A stretch of 64,000 bases of DNA. Origin: Trichodelitschia bisporula. Lineage: Eukaryota. This document shows positions 2,064-48,741 of the stretch, piece after piece. The notes under the pieces are model-generated. The model searched no databases. It was given only the letters and a program-made list of their open reading frames with translations, and was not told where the DNA came from. Every line of letters starts with the position of its first letter. Within the stretch, counting starts at the first letter, position 1. Position numbers and translations under genes: made by a program. The stretch is taken from contig ML996702.1 in assembly GCA_010356995.1 (NCBI GenBank), forward strand, positions 248,001 to 312,000, given 5' to 3'.

Positions 2064-4430
2064 CTAGCCCAGCACCAGATCGATCCACTCTAGCTCCTGG
2101 TCTTCCCAGTAATCCTTCACGACGTAGCCGACACCTTTCCGATAAGCGATCCCGTCTTTCCATTGGATGCAGAGCACACCGTAGTACTCAACACCGCCGT
2201 TGGATTTCGGCCACAATGCCTCTACGGGTGTGAAACCGATGCGGAAGAGATATGAAATTTTGCCAAGTTCGGAGCATGTCGTGCCATATCCCCGAACTAT
2301 CTCCACGAGCTCGATTCGTTCGTGAGTACCATTCTCCCCCCAGTCCAAGACTTCTTCGCCGGATGGCGGGTCATGAGGGGCAAGTAGCCCGAGCCAATAA
2401 CCATCTGAATCGAAAGGCGCCATAGCGGCAGGATTTTCATTCCAGCTAGAATTAATCGTGGACGGGTATCCCCTAAACGTGGTAGCTTTGTTTGCCCAGC
2501 CTCTTCGGGTTCGACCAGAGATCAACCGAGCCTGGATAATAGGTATTGATGGCGGAGCTGTGTCTTCTGGAACTGGAACAGGATGCCAATAGGTGCTCTC
2601 AGGGTCGGACTCATGCTTGTAAAAACATTTCATTGTTTCGTGGGCTTCCGGTTCCAGCCTGGGGTGTCTGCGGTAAAAGCCACAGGAGTCGGTTTCAAGC
2701 AGATAGCGAGTCCAGCCCTTGGGGCAAGGGGTTGAGGTGTTGTTGCGGAATTGCTGTCTCCAGGCGTACCATTCGGCATCGATTGGGTGTTGAGTCGAGT
2801 TGCTTTCAGCTTGCCAGTGCCATTTTACCAACGGCTCCACATGTCTGCGGAGCATAGTGCTTCCATCGTTCCATCTGCGCTCAAAAAGGTCTTGCCTATA
2901 ACCAAAGTGCTGTAGTCCGCCTGGTTCGAAACTGCCACTAGGTCCATACCCTCCCATCCAACTCCAGCTCGGAAAAAGGGGCCCGGTGGAGTCCAGTCCA
3001 GGGGCGGGAACACAACAGCGTCGTCGGCGCAGCCCATTCATTGGCCAGCGAGGCTCCCATAGCAGAGACAGATCGAAGGACACTACCGGAAGCCCAGATA
3101 TGAAGCCCCCTTTGAAAGAGTAAGACAGCACCGAGGCGATACCAGAAAATGCTCTGATGATATCCTCGGAGTTTGTGAGCTCTCTCCTGCTGTACCTAGA
3201 GACAAGTTCCGAATACAGCGCAGGTTTGGGGATACGATGTTCAAACATGCTTCGGAACAGGAAAGGAGGGTGTCCATAACAGGCCGCACCTGAGGTGTTG
3301 TCACTCAGGGTCGAGTCCCTCAGGTTCCAGTTGTCGTGGTTCTCTTGCCAACGGCACTCGTTGCATTCCCAATAAGCGCGTGTGGACTTTGGGGAGCCTG
3401 GGTAACTAAGGAACTCCGGGGGCTTAGTATTGGAAAAGACCAGCCGTCTCCGGGAAAAAAGCCATTCTTGAAATGTCCAGCCTCGTGTGTTCCATAGAGA
3501 TGTATCCAGTTTAAAATTGGCGTCTTTGATGATCTTCAGCCCACCAACCTCACATGTTTGGGGTGGGAGTGACCTTGACGGCGATACGCCCTTCAATCCA
3601 CGGAAACCGTCGAATGCGCTTTCCCCGTTCGCGCATATGATGGTCACCGAGGCATTCGCATATATCAACGCCATTTGCCCCAACTCTTCCTGCTTCTGGG
3701 TTTCTTTCTGATCTTGCACAATGCACAAGGCATCGACCCAGAGGTATTGCTCCCCCAACATTTCCGTCAGAACCATAGCTCGACGTATGGTGTCCGGAAC
3801 GGCGAAATTCTTATTTGACTCTGACAGCGCATCCACGACGCACAGAAGCTTGGCCAGGTCGCTTTGATGAGTGGTCCGAAACTCCTTCTTGCCCCAAACG
3901 TAACTCAGGGCGACATAGCTCTTAGCCACATTTCCAGGGATCAGGCATTTTAGCCAAACATCCACGAGCAAGGCCGGTCGAAATCCGAGAGCCCAAGGGG
4001 CTAACAATACTTGACATTTGACACCGTGTTCCCGATCGCACGTCGATTTCCAGCGATACGGTAGGCTATCATCAATCCAGTCGACATCGATTTCGCGATG
4101 TTGGAGTCGGCCTGGCGACTCTTCAGTTTTATGAGGGCAGAGAGGTACCAGAGGGGGGCCTATCAGTTCAAGATGCTCAACAGTACGAAGCTTCACAAGA
4201 CGTCGCACAGTAGGCTTAACCGAGATGATTGGCACATAACCGAATCCTTCGATATCACGACTCATGAGGAAAAGCGACCTGTCATCCGAAAGCGGAGTAC
4301 CGTCCGTTGGGATATGCTCTGCGAGGAAGGGCTTGTGCACCTCGCACGGGCTCGACATGATTTCCAGCAGGCCACCAAGGACTTTATCCGGAGCCCATTC
4401 AGGGCGGGGCGTATTAATGAAGACATCCAT
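2064..4430 (-). CDS. HET (heterokaryon incompatibility) domain protein; probably extends upstream through a further exon (see findings)
   Basis: 788-aa ORF with HET-family motifs YVALSYVWG, YLWVDALCIVQD, MALIYANASVTI, WNTRGWTFQEWLFSRRRLVF, YSRRELTNSED..RAFSGI and PSWSW. Confidence 0.9.
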   Translation of the reverse strand: MDVFINTPRPEWAPDKVLGGLLEIMSSPCEVHKPFLAEHIPTDGTPLSDDRSLFLMSRDIEGFGYVPIISVKPTVRRLVKLRTVEHLELIGPPLVPLCPHKTEESPGRLQHREIDVDWIDDSLPYRWKSTCDREHGVKCQVLLAPWALGFRPALLVDVWLKCLIPGNVAKSYVALSYVWGKKEFRTTHQSDLAKLLCVVDALSESNKNFAVPDTIRRAMVLTEMLGEQYLWVDALCIVQDQKETQKQEELGQMALIYANASVTIICANGESAFDGFRGLKGVSPSRSLPPQTCEVGGLKIIKDANFKLDTSLWNTRGWTFQEWLFSRRRLVFSNTKPPEFLSYPGSPKSTRAYWECNECRWQENHDNWNLRDSTLSDNTSGAACYGHPPFLFRSMFEHRIPKPALYSELVSRYSRRELTNSEDIIRAFSGIASVLSYSFKGGFISGLPVVSFDLSLLWEPRWPMNGLRRRRCCVPAPGLDSTGPLFPSWSWMGGYGPSGSFEPGGLQHFGYRQDLFERRWNDGSTMLRRHVEPLVKWHWQAESNSTQHPIDAEWYAWRQQFRNNTSTPCPKGWTRYLLETDSCGFYRRHPRLEPEAHETMKCFYKHESDPESTYWHPVPVPEDTAPPSIPIIQARLISGRTRRGWANKATTFRGYPSTINSSWNENPAAMAPFDSDGYWLGLLAPHDPPSGEEVLDWGENGTHERIELVEIVRGYGTTCSELGKISYLFRIGFTPVEALWPKSNGGVEYYGVLCIQWKDGIAYRKGVGYVVKDYWEDQELEWIDLVLG

Positions 4431-40981: not shown

Positions 40982-41750
40982 ATGTCTTCCGATCTGTGGT
41001 ATGTGATCCTACGGCCTAGTCGCGAAGCCCCGCGCGATGATAAGCCTCTTGCTCGCGCCTTTGCATCAGCTCCTCCTTGCCTGCCTTAGAGCGTGCTTGC
41101 TAACATTTGCTCTGCGCAGTCCCGTCTACGCCGTATGCCTTCCCGTCCATGCCAGACCACTGGTGGACCGCTTCACACTTTAGGGTAGCTAACTCAGTGC
41201 AGCCGTTTTTCGGGGCGATGGGCTGTACCGCCGCCATTGTCTTCACCTGCTTCGGCGCTGCCTACGGCACTGCCAAGTCCGGCGTCGGCATCGCCGCCAT
41301 GGGTGTTCTCCGGCCTGACCTCATCGTCAAGAGTGCGTCGCCCGCCTAGCGCTTTTGCATGGTCTAACATGGATAGACATCATTCCCGTCATTATGGCTG
41401 GTATCATCGGTATCTACGGCTTGGTGGTGTCGGTCCTCATCTCGAACGACCTGAAGCAGGAGACGGCCCTCTTCACGGGCTTCATTCAGCTCGGTGCTGG
41501 TCTGTCCGTCGGCCTGGCGGGTCTTGCCGCTGGCTTTGCCATTGGCATCGTTGGTGACGCTGGTGTCCGTGGTACCGCTCAGCAGCCCCGGTTGTTCGTT
41601 GGCATGATCCTGATTCTCATTTTCGCCGAAGTCCTGGGTAAGTTTGGCGACCAGAGAAGAAACATCGCTGACGTCGCAGGTCTGTATGGGTTGATCGTTG
41701 CGCTCCTGATGAACTCCCGCGCTAGCCAGGACGTCACCTGCAGCCGCTAA
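40982..41750 (+). CDS. VMA3: V-type ATPase 16-kDa proteolipid subunit c, 5 exons including a 13-nt microexon
   Basis: Exons 40982-40998, 41120-41132, 41203-41332, 41377-41637 and 41680-41750 give [63 protein letters not shown]. Confidence 0.96.
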
Positions 41751-42255: not shown

Positions 42256-43730
42256 ATGGTCTCAAAACTTCCGCAAAACCCACTGATCGCCGTCATCGGC
42301 GCAACAGGCACGGGAAAATCTCAAGTATGAAACCCCCCAATTCGAACATCAAGTATCTTATGCATGTAGTTGGCCGTTGAGCTCGCCATACGGTTTAACG
42401 GCGAAATAATCAATGGCGATGCCGTTCAGATGTATCATGGCCTGCCCATCATTACGAACAAAATCACTGAGCCCGAGATGAAGGGCATCCCGCATCATTT
42501 TCTCGGCACCATCGGCCTCGACGAACCGACTTGGACCGTAGGCACCTTTTTGAAAAAGGTTTTGCCGCTGGTGAGTTGTGCTCGCGGAGTAGAATACGGC
42601 GCTTATACCAGTAGATCGATGCCATCCACGCCCGCAACCGCCTTCCCATCCTAGTCGGCGGAACGCATTACTACACCCAGGCCCTCCTCGTCAAAAACTC
42701 CACCATAGAACCCTCTTCCGACGCCGAAGAAGGCGACCCTAGAACAGAATCCCCTTTCTCCATCCTCGACGCCCCCACGGAAACTGTCCTCCAGCGCCTC
42801 CGCGAAGTCGACCCAGTCATGGCGGAACGCTGGCACCCCCATGACCGCCGCAAGATTCAACGCTCCCTTGAGATTTTCCTGCGTACTGGTAGGCCTGCGT
42901 CTGAGATGTATGCCGCGCAGCATGCCGCGCCTGACGATGCTGGATCTGGGGACGAAGAAACGGACCTTGCGGGGGGGGGTATGCGCTTCCCGACGCTTAC
43001 CCTGTGGGTTCACGCTCCGCACAACGTTCTTGCGCCTAGGCTTGATGCCCGCGTACACAAGATGTTGGAAGCGGGGTTGCTAGACGAAGTCCGCGCCATG
43101 GACGCCTATCGGACAGACAAGTCCCGCATCGAGCCGGTCGACCTCACGAAAGGAATCTGGGCGTCCATCGGATACCGGCAATTCGCACCAATGCTGGAAG
43201 CAGAGCGCGCAGGGGCTGCTGAAGCCGAGGTCCTAAAGGGTTACAACGAAGGCATCGAAATGACGCAGGCGGCTACGCGGCGATATGCCAAGCGGCAGAT
43301 CCGCTGGGTGCGGATCAAGCTCGTGAATGCGCTGGAGAGGGCGGGGGCGAAGGGGAATTTGTTTGCGTTGGATGGCGAGGATGTGGGGAGGTTTGAGGAG
43401 GGGGTTGTTAAGCCGGCGGTTGGGTTGGTGGGGACGTTTTTAGAGGGTGGGGAGTTGCCTGCGCCGGAGGTGGTGGCTGATGTTGCGGGTGAGATATTGG
43501 AGGCGCAGGCAGAGGATTTGAGTTTGAGGAGGGATTTGTGGGTTAAGAAGAGGTGTGAGGTTTGTGGGACTACGGCGGTTACGGAGCATGAATGGGAGAA
43601 GCATGTTAGGTCGAAGAGGCATGGGAAGTTGGTGGCGAAGGCGAAGAAGAGGGAAGGGGATAGGGAGAGGTTGGCTCTGAGGGAGGAAGGAAATCATAGG
43701 AGTGAGGTTGATGATTCGCAGGAAGGTTAA
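42256..43730 (+). CDS. MOD5: tRNA dimethylallyltransferase (isopentenyltransferase), 3 exons; in-frame upstream ATG at 42235
   Basis: P-loop [67 protein letters not shown] and a C-terminal zinc finger CEVC..HVRSKRH. Confidence 0.95.
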
Positions 43731-44578
43731 GAGGCTTTTGTGCTCATCAAGAGGTTGTTGGGTACAAATGCTTCATTTTCCCGCTGGTATCATGATGATC
43801 ACGTACTCAAATTCGGAGACAAAGGGTGATGACGCTATCAAGAAGGTATCGTTTCTTCGATGCTAAGGTGGGTGTTTGAAGCGGCTTGGGATGAATGCAG
43901 GCTAATATGTGCTGCCAGCTGCGAGAACATAGTCCAATGGCAAGGCGATCAAGGCGGGATGTTTTTAGGCTTGTGTAAAGTGGGCGAGCAACAGAAAACT
44001 TCACCTAGCCAAGATAGTAATTCTAGCTCATCACGGAAGCACAGGCCATGCGATCCCGCCGCGGTCTTGTCGGCTGCCAACGCCAAGGCATACAGCCTCG
44101 TCCCCCTCCGATACACCACAACGTCAGCATCAAGCGCAACAGGATTAATCAAACTGAAGTCAAAGTCTCAATTGCTAAATACTAATGGATCTGCAAGCTC
44201 TTGAGAGAAGTTGTTGGCTGTGTCCTCCGTCGCGTGCAGTTGGAGCTGTCACTCGGGGTTGTGACGGGCCCGGTCTCTCGGTTCCCTTACCATTGTTCCT
44301 CAGACATCACCTCCTCACAATGCTAACCCCTCCGCCGTACCACGGACCCACGACGCCCAGGAACAACACTAAGCTCCCGGCTGTGCCTCAGTCTCTACCA
44401 CTGATCTTTAGCATTGTGGATCTTAGTATTGTCACCACGATGGCCCCCCACATAGTATTCATGTTTTCGGCTCAACTCCACCACACTTCTTCTCCTTGTC
44501 TACCACCTACACAGATACCCAACACCGTGACGATATCAGACTTTCTCAACAGCTGTTACCGCTGCAAGTCAAGCATAT

Positions 44579-44771
44579 TATTGACTTTGTGGAACTGGCA
44601 CAGGCAACTGAAAAAAAGGGGAGAAGATAGTTGTATCGGATGCGGAGGAAACTATCTACTGAAAACGGCTTAAGTACTGAAACCGGAGAAAACATTGATC
44701 CGGTAACCTTTCAGTACTGGAGCCTTGGCACTAGCCACAAACCTGCCTACAGCCTCAACTGCCTCTCAACA
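44579..44771 (-). repeat. LTR (3' LTR in element orientation)
   Basis: Minus strand reads TGTTGA...TCAATA. About 96% identical to 46005-46196. Preceded on the minus strand by a purine-rich GGAGGG (weak PPT). Confidence 0.9.
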
Positions 44772-45060
44772 CGGCCCTCCAAATCGCTAGCTCAGCCGTG
44801 ATCCACGAGGTCATTGACATCTGAATTGTTATTGTCCTTGATGTCGGTGACGTCATACGTCTTGACGTTGAAGTAGTAAGCGGCCTGAGGTGGCGATTTA
44901 ACCAAGCAAGCGCTCCCGAAAGAGCCCCTGAATACCCTCTCGGAGTCACGCCGCAAGCTTCGAGAGCGCGCAATCGTCAATCGTCAATGGTCTCCGGAGG
45001 GCCTCGGATCCTCATCATCACAAGCCACGGTGTCACCGTAGAGAGAGAGGGATCGCAATC

Positions 45061-46002
45061 ATGGCACCAATCACCTTCTCAGACGAGGAAATCGACGATA
45101 TCGCTTTCGAAGTCACAAGCTCAGAACGTTCAGCTGACGTCATCCTGGACCAGAAGAGTCAATGGAGCAATTGGATTAGATCAGTACAAGCTAAATTCGA
45201 AATCTGGTGTGTCTGGGGACATCTCGAAGGACGCGATTCAATAGATCTCTCAATTGGCGATCATCAACGACTCGATTATGCGCTTCGCTTATGGCTTCTC
45301 AAAGGGATCTCAAAGAAGCTGCACTGGATCCTTAGGCAAGATAGATACGCTATCTATTCGAGTCTAGAAGCGTTCGCATTAATCAGGAAGCTTCGTGGGC
45401 TGCCGCCACCGATGCCGAAGCAAATCACCCCGCAATCCAAATCCTCCCCGCAAGGGATTAAGCAAGAAGGACCCCCCCGCAAAACACCCGAAACCATTAC
45501 CGAGCAAGAGCTCAGAGGATCAACGCCAGCCAGAGAGTCACCGGCAGAGAGTGGACGACAGAGCGTCCCATCGGAGACGGCAAATACGGTAACGATCGAG
45601 TTAGCAAAGCAAGAATCCACGTGCAGTTAAGCCCTAGAACTCAACTTAATCGACCAAGCGCCAGTCACGCCGGAAGCTTTTATCGCAATCATCGAACCAA
45701 CGGCAGCCACGGGGCCGCCGGTATTACGCGATCAGGGGCGCAGGCGACGTGACGTGAGCTTAATGGACGTAAAGTCGGAGACGTCTCCACAGCCAAACGC
45801 TTCAGCAAAGCAATTTGAGCCTCAGCGTCAGTCTACGGCAACGGCTAGATCGCTCAACGCAATCAGGCTTGCAGTTAGAGCGATTTCCTGCATCTCAGTC
45901 GCAAGCTTCAAGTGCGCTTTTGACGTGTTTATCGATTCTTCTCAGATAGCTGAATGCGGAAGAGGGTCCCCTAGTAGCCGCGGGAGCACCAGGGACTCAT
46001 AA
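45061..46002 (+). pseudogene. Gag-like ORF inside the LTR element, interrupted by one in-frame TAA at 45628-45630
   Basis: 189 codons (QWSNWIRSVQAKFEIWCVWGHLEG..ALRLWLLKGIS..EAFALIRK, resembling copia Gag N-termini). The same frame stays open after the TAA until 46002. Confidence 0.55.
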
Positions 46003-46004
46003 CC
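45990..46004 (-). other. Primer-binding site complementary to the anticodon arm of initiator tRNA-Met
   Basis: GGTTATGAG(T)CCCTG versus the tRNAiMet anticodon arm CAGGGCUCAUAACC (one extra base). This type of half-tRNA priming is known from Ty5 and Drosophila copia. Confidence 0.8.
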
Positions 46005-46196
46005 TAATGACTGTGTAGAACTGGCACAGGCAACTGAAAAAAAGGGGAGAAGATAGTTGTATCGGATGCGGAGGAAACTATCTACTGAAGACGGCTTTAG
46101 TACTGAAACCGGAGAAACATTGATCCGGTAACCTTTCAGTACTGAAGCCTTGGCACTAGCCACAAACCTGCCTACAGCCTCAACTGCCTCTCAACG
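46005..46196 (-). repeat. LTR (5' LTR in element orientation)
   Basis: Minus strand reads CGTTGA...TCATTA, immediately followed by the PBS. Confidence 0.9.
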
Positions 46197-46249
46197 CATA
46201 TCCTCTCTCTGCCATACTTCACTTCCTCTTCACCCTCCAACCGGACATC

Positions 46250-47387
46250 ATGGACTCCGCACCAACCTTCGACGTCCTCTCTCAACCTCTTCCCATCCTC
46301 CTCCGGGACGGCAAAACACACGCCAACCTAACCCTATCCGCAATTGAAGCATACGCTTGGAACCGCAGCAACACCGCGCTCGTATACGGCATCGAACTCG
46401 GCCTAACCATCTACGCCCTCCTCATCGCCTACATGTGCACGCGGCCCGAAAAGCGCAAATCTCCCATCTTCATCCTCAACATCTTAGCCCTCATCTTCAA
46501 CACCATCAAGGCCGGCTTCGCAGCACACTACATCAACGGGCCCTTCCTCGAGCTCTACGCCATTCTTGCAAGCGACTTCTCCCGCGTGCCGAAAGGGGAA
46601 TATGTCTGCTCTGTCATCTTGGTCGTGTGCAAGTTTCTCGCCCTGCTCTGCACGGAAGGCAGCCTCGTCGTCCAAGTCCATGCCGTGCTCGCGACGACTA
46701 CGGCCCGGCAGCGGCTCTGGCTGCTCATGGCCACTGGATTCTTTGCTCTGGCTGCCGTGGGCTGCGGCTTCGCCCTAACCATTTTCAGCGCCATTGCAAT
46801 CATGCACACTACGGTGACTTTCACCGAAGCCAAGGTGACCTTGGCGGCTGGTATTAGCATCATGGTCAGTATCGTGTTTTTCATGATAATCTTTGTATGG
46901 AAGCTGGGGTTTGCCATATGGCAGCGCCGGCGGTTGGGGGTGCGGACGTATGGGCCTATGGAGGTACTGTTTATTATGGGGTGCTGTACTATGATTGTAC
47001 CGAGTAAGTTTACACCTTTTCCCTGTCGACGATATTGAGTTAGGACTGACCTCTCTAGCTATCTTTTCGATAATGCTCTGCATTACCGACCTCCCGTTCA
47101 TCCCGACCCTCACCCTCACTCTCACCGCCACCATGCTACCCCTTTCTTCGATCTGGGCCGCCGAGGGCATCAACCACGGAGCTGTACCCACATTTGAACA
47201 ACACCCCGCGAAAGCTCACGATCCCGAGGCTGGACTTAAGCACGTCGAAGATCCGGTCATGACGCCGGTGCGGCCGATTTATGATGATTCGGTGCTGATG
47301 TCGGGGAGCACTGTGCAGACATACGTGGTTCGGGGTTCGAATGGCCTGGATGTCAACAAGAAGCTGCCGAAGTCCCCTCTGACCTAA
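46250..47387 (+). CDS. STE2: Alpha-factor pheromone receptor (fungal class D GPCR), 2 exons (intron 47004-47058)
   Basis: FDVLSQPLPILLRDG, YGIELG, KRKSPIFILNILAL, EGSLVVQV, KLGFAIWQRRRLGVRTYGPMEVLFIMGCCTMIVP and LPLSSIWA; seven hydrophobic segments. Confidence 0.93.
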
Positions 47388-47699
47388 GCGAGTGCCTGGA
47401 TGGACTGAGGCTGTGCGAGATGATGTCGAGTGGGTGGTTCAATCCTGGTCGTGCCTGAGGGCTTGTAGAGATATTGATGTGGCAAATGTGTTTCTGTAGT
47501 GATAAATGTTTATGAACTTTTACGTCGTTCTTTGACTTGCTTGCTTTGCTCTTAGTGACTATCTGCTCCAAGATGTAGCCGTGTACATCCCACCCATTTT
47601 AAGCGTTCAGAAAATCCCATGTAAGGGGTTAGGGATTTCAAAGACATAGTATTTGGGGGAAAAACCTTGCAGTCAAACTCTATAACGATGAGAAGATCC

Positions 47700-48475
47700 C
47701 TACTCGGCTTCTCTGAGAACTTGCTCCAAGATGCGAGCATATTCGCCCACCTCCCGAGCACCCGTGGTGGCGAAGTCACGCTTCTTGCCTTCGATCACGA
47801 TATAAGGCACGCCATCAATTCCGGCGCCAGCCTGTTGGCGAATCAGCAATTTGACTTCCCGCTGTCCGATACTCTCATCTGCGACGAAAGCTTCAGCTTC
47901 ATCGGCCGGGATGCCCGCATCAGTAGCCGCTTTCAGCAATGTCGCGGGTGATGAGGGGTGTTGGGCGTTCTCAAAGTACTGAGTGTAAAGTGCTAGGACG
48001 TTAGAACCCAACTCTTGCATGCCAGATGGGCTTACATAAGATGATCTTATCAGCAATCTCAGGTCCCTTCTCCTTCTGGTAGTGCTGAATAAGGCGATGG
48101 GCATTGAGGGTATTTGCGGCGATCTGCCCCTCAAACTTGAAATTGATTCCACAGTCCCTCCCATACTCGGTCATGATCGTGCGCATCATTTTCATGCGCT
48201 CTGGGGACATGTCTGGTCGCTTCTTGCGGAAGTACTCATCCAAGGGTTCACCTCCTTGGGAGGCTTGCGGGTTGAGCTGGAACGGAAAGTACTTGATAGT
48301 GTATTGGACCGGAGCATCGGGATGAGCGGCGTAGAATTGCCGTAATGCTTCTTCGAGCCTCCGCTTCGCGAGATATGTCCTACTTTCTTTAGCCGAGGCT
48401 GGATGCGAGGCTGCAATTCTCATACCATGGACAGACAGTGTCCAGCGTGAATGCGATTTGCGATTGAAACGCCAT
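47700..48475 (-). CDS. DsbA/FrnE-like thioredoxin-fold protein, 3 exons
   Basis: Splices to MAFQSQIAFTLDTVCPW|TYLAKRRL (CPWT variant). Motifs PFQLNP, ANTLNAHRLI and GIDGVPYIVIEG. Confidence 0.88.
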
Positions 48476-48741
48476 CTTGACTCCCCAACATGTACCGCTC
48501 GCGGAACTGAGTGAAATAAGTCACTTTCCCTCACATCACACGGCTTCACCTCCGCCTTAAATGGCGTGTCCGCCTTAATGTCCGCCGGCTTATCAATCAA
48601 ACCCGACATTCACTCCCAGCCTCGAGCAAGGATCCATAGCTTGCGCCACACCCCCGCCAAACCGTGTGGCACAACCTCACCCCTCACCCCCCCCCCACCA
48701 TCACCAACCTCGCGCTCCCCCACATCGTCACGAAGCCCAAA

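Follow-up and report, generated by a model that had tools for sequence, protein, structure and literature searches.

A putative non-autonomous copia-type retroelement directly upstream of the STE2 pheromone receptor gene of Trichodelitschia bisporula

The STE2 gene of the fungus Trichodelitschia bisporula, which encodes a pheromone receptor of the alpha-factor type, lies in a 64-kb stretch of contig ML996702.1 (positions 248,001 to 312,000 of assembly GCA_010356995.1), referred to here as the window, to which all positions belong. Immediately upstream of its start codon sits a 1.6-kb insertion bounded by direct terminal repeats, which has the layout of a retroelement with long terminal repeats (LTRs). 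The upstream neighbour of STE2 is a tRNA isopentenyltransferase (IPPT) gene on the same strand; its RNA contig ends at 44177, indicating that the region available upstream of STE2 before the insertion was only about 450 bp. Pheromone receptors set mating partners, and a change of promoter is one of the few simple routes to altered mating behaviour in fungi. Among the papers that a literature search listed, none described a STE2 gene with an LTR element in front of it.

The STE2 gene is intact, with an open and spliced frame that matches its family over the full length. The open reading frame (ORF) starting at 46250 matches the Pfam STE2 family (PF02116) with E 1.7e-63 and 215 bits against a cut-off of 27.2, and removal of its single intron leaves a coding sequence of 1,083 nt, which yields 360 amino acids and a single terminal stop. 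Kyte-Doolittle hydropathy gives seven hydrophobic segments. The initiator methionine aligns with the first methionine of four of six homologues and with an internal methionine of the other two (P0005 and P0007), which carry long N-terminal extensions, and 44 columns are invariant across the seven aligned sequences. The full-length match, the conserved start and the seven hydrophobic segments are those of the STE2/PreB-type alpha-factor receptors of ascomycetes, whereas the nearest proteins found are only 34-45% identical (13 proteins at E <= 0.001, including the window's own, which is left out of the identity range). The named relatives come from Aspergillus and a lichen fungus; with a HET-domain gene in the window, they assign the fungus to the filamentous ascomycetes.

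The element upstream of this gene occupies 44579-46196 (1,618 bp, of which 1,233 bp are interior) and ends 53 nt before the STE2 ATG (Table 1). CATAT stands directly outside both repeats as a perfect 5-bp target site duplication (TSD); five identical nucleotides in a single fixed register would arise by chance with a probability of 1/1024. At one end of the repeats the tip pair reads CAACA/CAACG on the plus strand, which is TGTTG/CGTTG on the minus strand. The two repeats are 96.35% identical over 192 nt (blastn), and a global alignment counts seven substitutions and one 1-nt indel (p = 0.036; Kimura two-parameter distance, K2P = 0.037). A preliminary description of this DNA had reported these coordinates, the CATAT duplication, the position of the ATG and the 53-nt spacing, together with a repeat divergence of about 4% and an intact STE2 frame, and on re-reading the sequence all of this was upheld. 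Fungal neutral rates are 1e-9 to 1e-8 per site per year. At such rates K = 0.037 would mean an insertion roughly 2-20 million years old, an age derived from general rates and not measured. The repeat differences comprise four transitions and three transversions, and the GC content of the element, at 46-53%, is not depressed; neither the differences between the repeats nor the GC content of the element carries a signature of repeat-induced point mutation, and the idea of such mutation, or of heterochromatin, at the element was rejected on these grounds.

The priming signals of the element are found on the minus strand. The 15 nt abutting the proximal repeat read GGTTATGAGTCCCTG, which has no second match within the 64-kb window and is complementary to CAGGG-CTCATAACC in the yeast initiator tRNA's anticodon stem-loop over 14 nt, with one extra base. 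Weaker similarity to the initiator tRNA extends from this putative primer-binding site into the D arm. The comparison was made by eye, the reference being the yeast initiator tRNA, which as printed in PMC7957392 contains CAGGGCTCATAACC. At the other end of the interior, the minus strand carries GGAGGGCCG ahead of the TGTTG tip of the left repeat, which, with just GGAGGG followed by CCG, makes a weak polypurine tract. A primer site in the plus orientation was rejected, since the sequence after the left repeat lacks a TGG start and no tRNA part matched it by eye. Because the primer site and the polypurine tract are both on the minus strand, the element would be a minus-strand element, with its 5' LTR adjoining STE2 in a head-to-head arrangement, instead of in plus orientation toward STE2.

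The interior contains a plus-strand frame (44932-46002) with one internal stop in 357 codons. Its first part includes a 189-aa ORF, ORF189, which has a single relative, P0015, among 1.84 billion representative proteins (E 5.4e-8), to which residues 24-183 align in BLASTP with E 4e-14. P0015 is itself a protein of T. bisporula, is named in UniRef after the TNT1-94 Pol beta-barrel, and carries the copia Pol beta-barrel domain Pol_BBD (PF22936, E 1.8e-9). Similarly, the look-alikes of ORF189 in the Atlas, by features and structure, are copia Gag families, all of them below the 0.9 confidence bar. ORF189 is thus read as a probable N-terminal remnant of a copia-type Gag. Similarity to P0015 is absent from the latter half of the frame (45631-46002), a search for longer proteins related to ORF189 found none, and a metagenome scan for relatives of P0015 returned 0. 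At E thresholds from 0.1 to 10, Pfam matched neither ORF189 nor any of 13 further frames of the interior, and no protease, integrase or reverse transcriptase was found among the interior frames. A PDB profile search returned five irrelevant matches (E >= 0.16) and PHROGs returned 0, while AlphaFold models of ORF189 were poor (mean pLDDT, the predicted local distance difference test score, of 41.1 alone and 39.4 with P0015). The minus strand of the interior has no open frame of more than 90 codons and no family match, and Rfam gave 0 matches in 43700-46400. The gag remnant is a plus-strand feature, opposite to the primer site and the polypurine tract. A flip of the interior through flanking inverted repeats was rejected, as none were found around the gag ORF.

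Two short collinear direct repeats also occur in the interior (44944-44960 with 45663-45679, 17 nt, 94%; 45052-45062 with 45682-45692, 11 nt, 100%). Both connect the leader and the beginning of the gag-like ORF with sequence just beyond its stop. They may be traces of a partial duplication, or of the deletion in which the remainder of the element was lost.

With no pol in the interior, the element reads as a non-autonomous copia derivative. Judged from its sequence features, it is classified as a non-autonomous LTR retroelement of the Ty1/copia lineage, its copia affinity being counted as shown, and it is not an autonomous Ty1/copia element, since it is without pol. According to the available text of PMC10886601 (section 16), fungal Copia elements and their non-autonomous derivatives are primed by the anticodon loop of initiator tRNA-Met (tRNA-iMet) and make 5-bp TSDs, and TGTTG and CAACA are described as characteristic tips of yeast Ty LTRs in the available part of bioRxiv 10.1101/2025.04.25.647736. 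With Ty5, Drosophila copia-type elements and the fungal Copia elements of these two sources, the element shares the 5-bp TSD, a TGTTG/CAACA tip at one end, a tRNA-iMet primer site adjoining the LTR and a copia-type gag homologue. It differs from Ty5 and copia-type elements in being only 1.6 kb long and without protease, integrase and reverse transcriptase, in the TA of its second tip, in the extra base of its primer site and in a gag that is antisense to its priming signals.

The available text of PMC13570524 describes a continuum of non-autonomous LTR elements (TRIM, 'long-TRIM', LARD and TR-GAG), which have short LTRs, a TSD and a retained primer site in common with the present element, together with the loss of pol. 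In that text the 1.5-4 kb range of such elements has no name, and this is the range into which the 1.6 kb of the element falls, between the TRIM and LARD size classes. On its apparent content it is nearest to the gag-only TR-GAG type (PMC13570524, same portion): LTRs, TSD and priming signals are kept, pol is lost and a gag-only ORF is left, here antisense to the priming signals. TRIM, LARD and TR-GAG families, as far as this source describes them, belong to plants and are usually multi-copy, whereas the element at STE2 is found in a fungus, apparently as a single copy and with its gag remnant in antisense.

That the element is single-copy is indicated by the depth of short words in two DNA sequencing runs. 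Searched by blastn, the window holds no additional copies of either the repeat or the interior. In run X1, k-mers common to both repeats have depths of 931 and 895 against 422-475 for the flanks and interior, and in run X2 the corresponding figures are 429 against 212-229. This roughly twofold depth speaks for a single copy in the genome, bearing in mind that depth cannot be equated with copy number. A metagenome scan with a 28-nt stretch of the repeat found 0 matches. None of the 12 joints listed from contigs of the four runs spans the element, so that no empty site was encountered, as expected if there is one strain and without bearing on other strains; the four runs match the window with no listed difference and probably come from one strain.

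The other two of these four runs, which all derive from one organism, are X3 and X4, and they represent RNA from one sample of one study. Their RNA nature follows from the splice joints: of 12 joints with GT..AG or CT..AC borders, 11 are present in X3 and all 12 in X4, and none in X1 and X2, whose contigs cross the introns. X3 and X4 contigs also carry adapter tails. The STE2 contigs of the two RNA runs start at 46146 (X3) and 46186 (X4), which is 104 and 64 nt upstream of the ATG, so that they carry about 50 and 10 nt of the proximal repeat before the native 53 nt, and they continue past the spliced intron into the convergent downstream gene. The leader is rich in pyrimidines, and the stretch from 46069 to 46249 contains no ATG. 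STE2 mRNA is present and correctly spliced, and repeat sequence forms part of its leader. Because the contigs begin in the repeat, the start site must lie in the element or further upstream, and not in the native 53 nt.

A separate and shallow X3 contig (44767-46047) covers the interior at depth 8.72, whereas the STE2 contig reaches 447. This is no more than a hint that the majority of STE2 transcripts arise without crossing the interior, as contig depths cannot rank the parts of a locus and that of the STE2 contig is shared with the downstream gene. The contigs listed for X3 explain the whole of its depth in 46012-46345, leaving none on 46048-46145 and, likewise, none on 44676-44766. A stretch without cover is not taken as evidence, and, both RNA runs being one sample, the uncovered middle of the two repeats, which holds the palindrome described below, counts neither for nor against a start site.

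Taken as a whole, we favour, with moderate confidence, an explanation in which the element sits within the STE2 leader or core promoter, its proximal repeat serving as the start zone, and probably the promoter, of the gene. A non-autonomous element of the Ty1/copia lineage would have integrated once, long ago, in the short leader or core-promoter zone of STE2, creating the CATAT duplication. Pol is lost, but the end repeats remain, as do the primer site for the tRNA-iMet anticodon loop, a weak polypurine tract and the remnant of gag. STE2 came through this event intact and is transcribed, the final 10-50 nt or more of the proximal repeat standing at the head of its mRNA leader. The proximal repeat would then supply the start zone, and probably the promoter, from which transcription fires outward, antisense to the element as oriented by its primer site. 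We infer that initiation takes place inside the repeat and not further upstream. The preliminary description had offered three outcomes for the receptor gene, namely that it is silenced, decoupled from mating-type control, or driven from the element. Silencing is contradicted by the spliced STE2 contigs of both RNA runs. Expression driven from the element is the best supported of the three, given contigs that start about 50 and 10 nt within the repeat, although the contigs do not fix the start and read-through is possible.

Several points weigh against assigning the STE2 promoter to the repeat. Contigs cannot show the start, strand or level of a transcript, and since the STE2 contig runs together with the convergent gene downstream of it, its depth is not that of STE2 itself. 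Both RNA runs represent one sample of one study. RNA contigs of low depth lie over the interior and over 43 nt at the beginning of the proximal repeat, which leaves room for some read-through into STE2. A promoter motif was not recognised in the repeat. The dependence of STE2 expression on the element is likewise something we infer. The anatomy of the element adds two points of its own: the tips opposite to the TGTTG/CGTTG pair read TATTG/TAATG, with TA instead of TG in both copies, and the gag strand, opposite to that of the priming signals, is explained by no simple retroelement model. Either the master element already had its gag in reverse, by capture or rearrangement, or the interior was rearranged after the insertion. 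The reversal of the gag remnant is a minor structural puzzle in its own right.

It is conceivable, if on the unlikely side, that the element is a tolerated passenger and that STE2 is run by its own remaining DNA, either by the approximately 400 bp to the left of the insertion acting over 1.6 kb, or by the 53 nt and the coding region, or by both. Transcripts would then read through from far upstream, or start in the repeat from a displaced initiation zone, with level and mating-type regulation essentially unchanged. Against this, the leader begins with repeat sequence, so that a native start within the 53 nt, had there been one, is out of use, and among the contigs listed none bridges the interior to the STE2 contig, although low-depth contigs over the interior and both repeat starts indicate that transcription does cross parts of the element. 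The far shallower interior contig again argues for little passage through the interior, as a hint only. The persistence of the insertion through 3.7% of repeat divergence next to an intact ORF is what a harmless element would leave, and in the available text of PMC3553992 insertions of the Tf1 element into S. pombe promoters left expression undiminished, with the natural start sites retained. A quite improbable explanation is that the mating system is decaying, with a receptor that is no longer needed, damaged regulation, RNA that is unregulated or element-driven noise, and an ORF that is intact for lack of time. Constraint on the receptor is not measurable with nearest relatives at the identity given above, and the growth conditions behind the RNA would leave room for such noise; a stop-free and correctly spliced frame of 360 codons with 44 invariant columns in seven sequences, despite the divergence of the repeats, speaks against decay. 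It is very improbable that the insertion is not a retroelement, and is instead a local duplication or another repeat-bounded insertion that mimics one. The absence of pol, the TA tips, the weak polypurine tract, the gag opposite to the primer site and the lack of a second copy in the window or the metagenome scan would all fit such an origin, whereas, against it, 1.6 kb brings together a perfect 5-bp TSD, an abutting tRNA-iMet primer site, a tip reading TGTTG/CAACA and a homologue of copia gag.

The favoured explanation, in which the proximal repeat provides the STE2 start zone, has a more specific version that we consider rather improbable. Each repeat contains a palindrome built on the motif TCAGTACTGA, with 16-nt arms that are 94% complementary in the proximal repeat (46093-46149) and 88% in the distal repeat (44667-44724). 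The palindrome's DNA fold reaches -18 kcal/mol (z -7.3), with 0 of 200 shuffles equally good, and it could be a candidate site for a dimeric factor or an RNA or DNA hairpin. The proximal repeat might be a two-way promoter centred on the 57-nt palindrome that took over STE2, so that control by the element replaces mating-type-dependent control, and the distal repeat might likewise drive the antisense gag-like ORF, the element being a non-autonomous copia derivative with a reversed gag-type gene. If this were true, the circle of responders to alpha-type pheromone could be altered. The idea that the repeat carries a pheromone-response element was rejected: the Ste12-type motif, taken here as TGAAACR, is absent from 44000-46250, and the window holds 10 against 13.65 expected. 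In yeast, the 'ROAM' insertions of Ty1 place a copia-type element head-to-head with a neighbouring gene and influence its expression in a mating-type-dependent manner. The element at STE2 is also of copia type and, by its primer site, head-to-head with its neighbour, but is without TGAAACR in that interval.

A further parallel is provided by Tf1 in the promoters of S. pombe, where, in the portion of PMC3553992 available, an LTR element with a 5-bp TSD enters an RNA polymerase II promoter, does not shut off the neighbouring gene and can add regulatory activity, acting as an enhancer. Tf1 differs from the present element in being gypsy-type and autonomous, its insertions being experimentally induced and leaving the natural start sites in place (PMC3553992, same portion), while the element described here is 53 nt from the ATG with LTR sequence in the leader. 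Adjacent genes fed by LTR elements are a familiar finding in yeasts, plants and animals, and the principle is not new. What is new is the instance at STE2, a gene where regulation matters, and the kind of event is one already known. A retroelement has stood between the receptor and its native upstream DNA for long enough to accumulate about 3.7% divergence between its repeats, with the gene whole and transcribed. If the repeat is the promoter, a mobile element would here have re-wired a mating gene in nature; if it is not, the locus shows the tolerance of a compact fungal promoter to a 1.6-kb insertion.

Table 1. Features of the STE2 locus and its upstream element (window positions)
Feature	Position	Strand	Remark
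Remnant of the native STE2 upstream region	44178..44573	+	between the end of the IPPT RNA contig and the insertion site
TSD CATAT, left copy	44574..44578	.	
Terminal repeat distal to STE2	44579..44771	-	193 nt; 3' LTR if the element is minus-strand; minus-strand tips TGTTG...CAATA
Interior	44772..46004	.	1,233 bp, without pol domains
Polypurine-tract-like stretch	44772..44785	-	minus strand ...TTTGGAGGGCCG, right before the TGTTG tip; weak alone
ORF189, putative copia-type Gag N-terminal remnant	45061..45630	+	189 aa
Putative primer-binding site	45990..46004	-	GGTTATGAGTCCCTG, 15 nt, abuts the proximal repeat; sole match in the window
Terminal repeat proximal to STE2	46005..46196	-	192 nt; 5' LTR if the element is minus-strand
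Palindrome in the proximal repeat	46093..46149	.	57 nt; second one in the distal repeat at 44667-44724
STE2 mRNA leader covered by RNA contigs	46146..46249	+	from 46146 in X3 and 46186 in X4; repeat sequence over its first 51 nt; without upstream ATG
TSD CATAT, right copy	46197..46201	.	
STE2 exon 1	46250..47003	+	
STE2 intron	47004..47058	+	GTAAGT...CTCTAG, 55 nt, GT..AG; spliced in both RNA runs
STE2 exon 2	47059..47387	+	includes the stop codon

The remaining observations concern the neighbourhood. Upstream, 61% of the bases of 44460-44578 are pyrimidines, and the IPPT RNA contig runs 447 nt beyond the stop codon of that gene (43728-43730). Within this extension (43731-44177), a GT..AG intron at 43866-43916 is spliced in both RNA runs; it is either an intron of the 3' untranslated region or part of a small separate transcript that is fused into the contig. 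Downstream, STE2 and the convergent gene at 47388-48609 are joined on one RNA contig in both RNA runs, indicating that their 3' ends overlap or abut. This downstream gene, on the minus strand, encodes a DSBA-like thioredoxin domain and has CT..AC introns at 47993-48035 and 48379-48424.

The window as a whole is gene-dense and ordinary, with 15 of 26 scanned ORFs (at least 170 aa) matching housekeeping-type Pfam families, and none of the 26 matching a mating-type family in that scan. The 26 were taken from 41 listed ORFs, those dropped being chiefly overlapped opposite-strand or nested frames and two that had already been examined. In 40998-41203, one X4 contig skips 204 nt with GT..AG borders and has 13 other letters between the two sides, and X3 has a loose end at 41203, in a highly expressed gene; a micro-exon or alternative splicing may be involved. 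At 42513 and 49048, contigs of the DNA runs and of X3 leave the window sequence with loose ends of 255 nt, suggestive of a segment that is repeated, or of a paralogue, at another place in the genome. On the minus strand at 2067-4430, an ORF of 788 aa carries a HET (heterokaryon incompatibility) domain, which is typical of filamentous ascomycetes.

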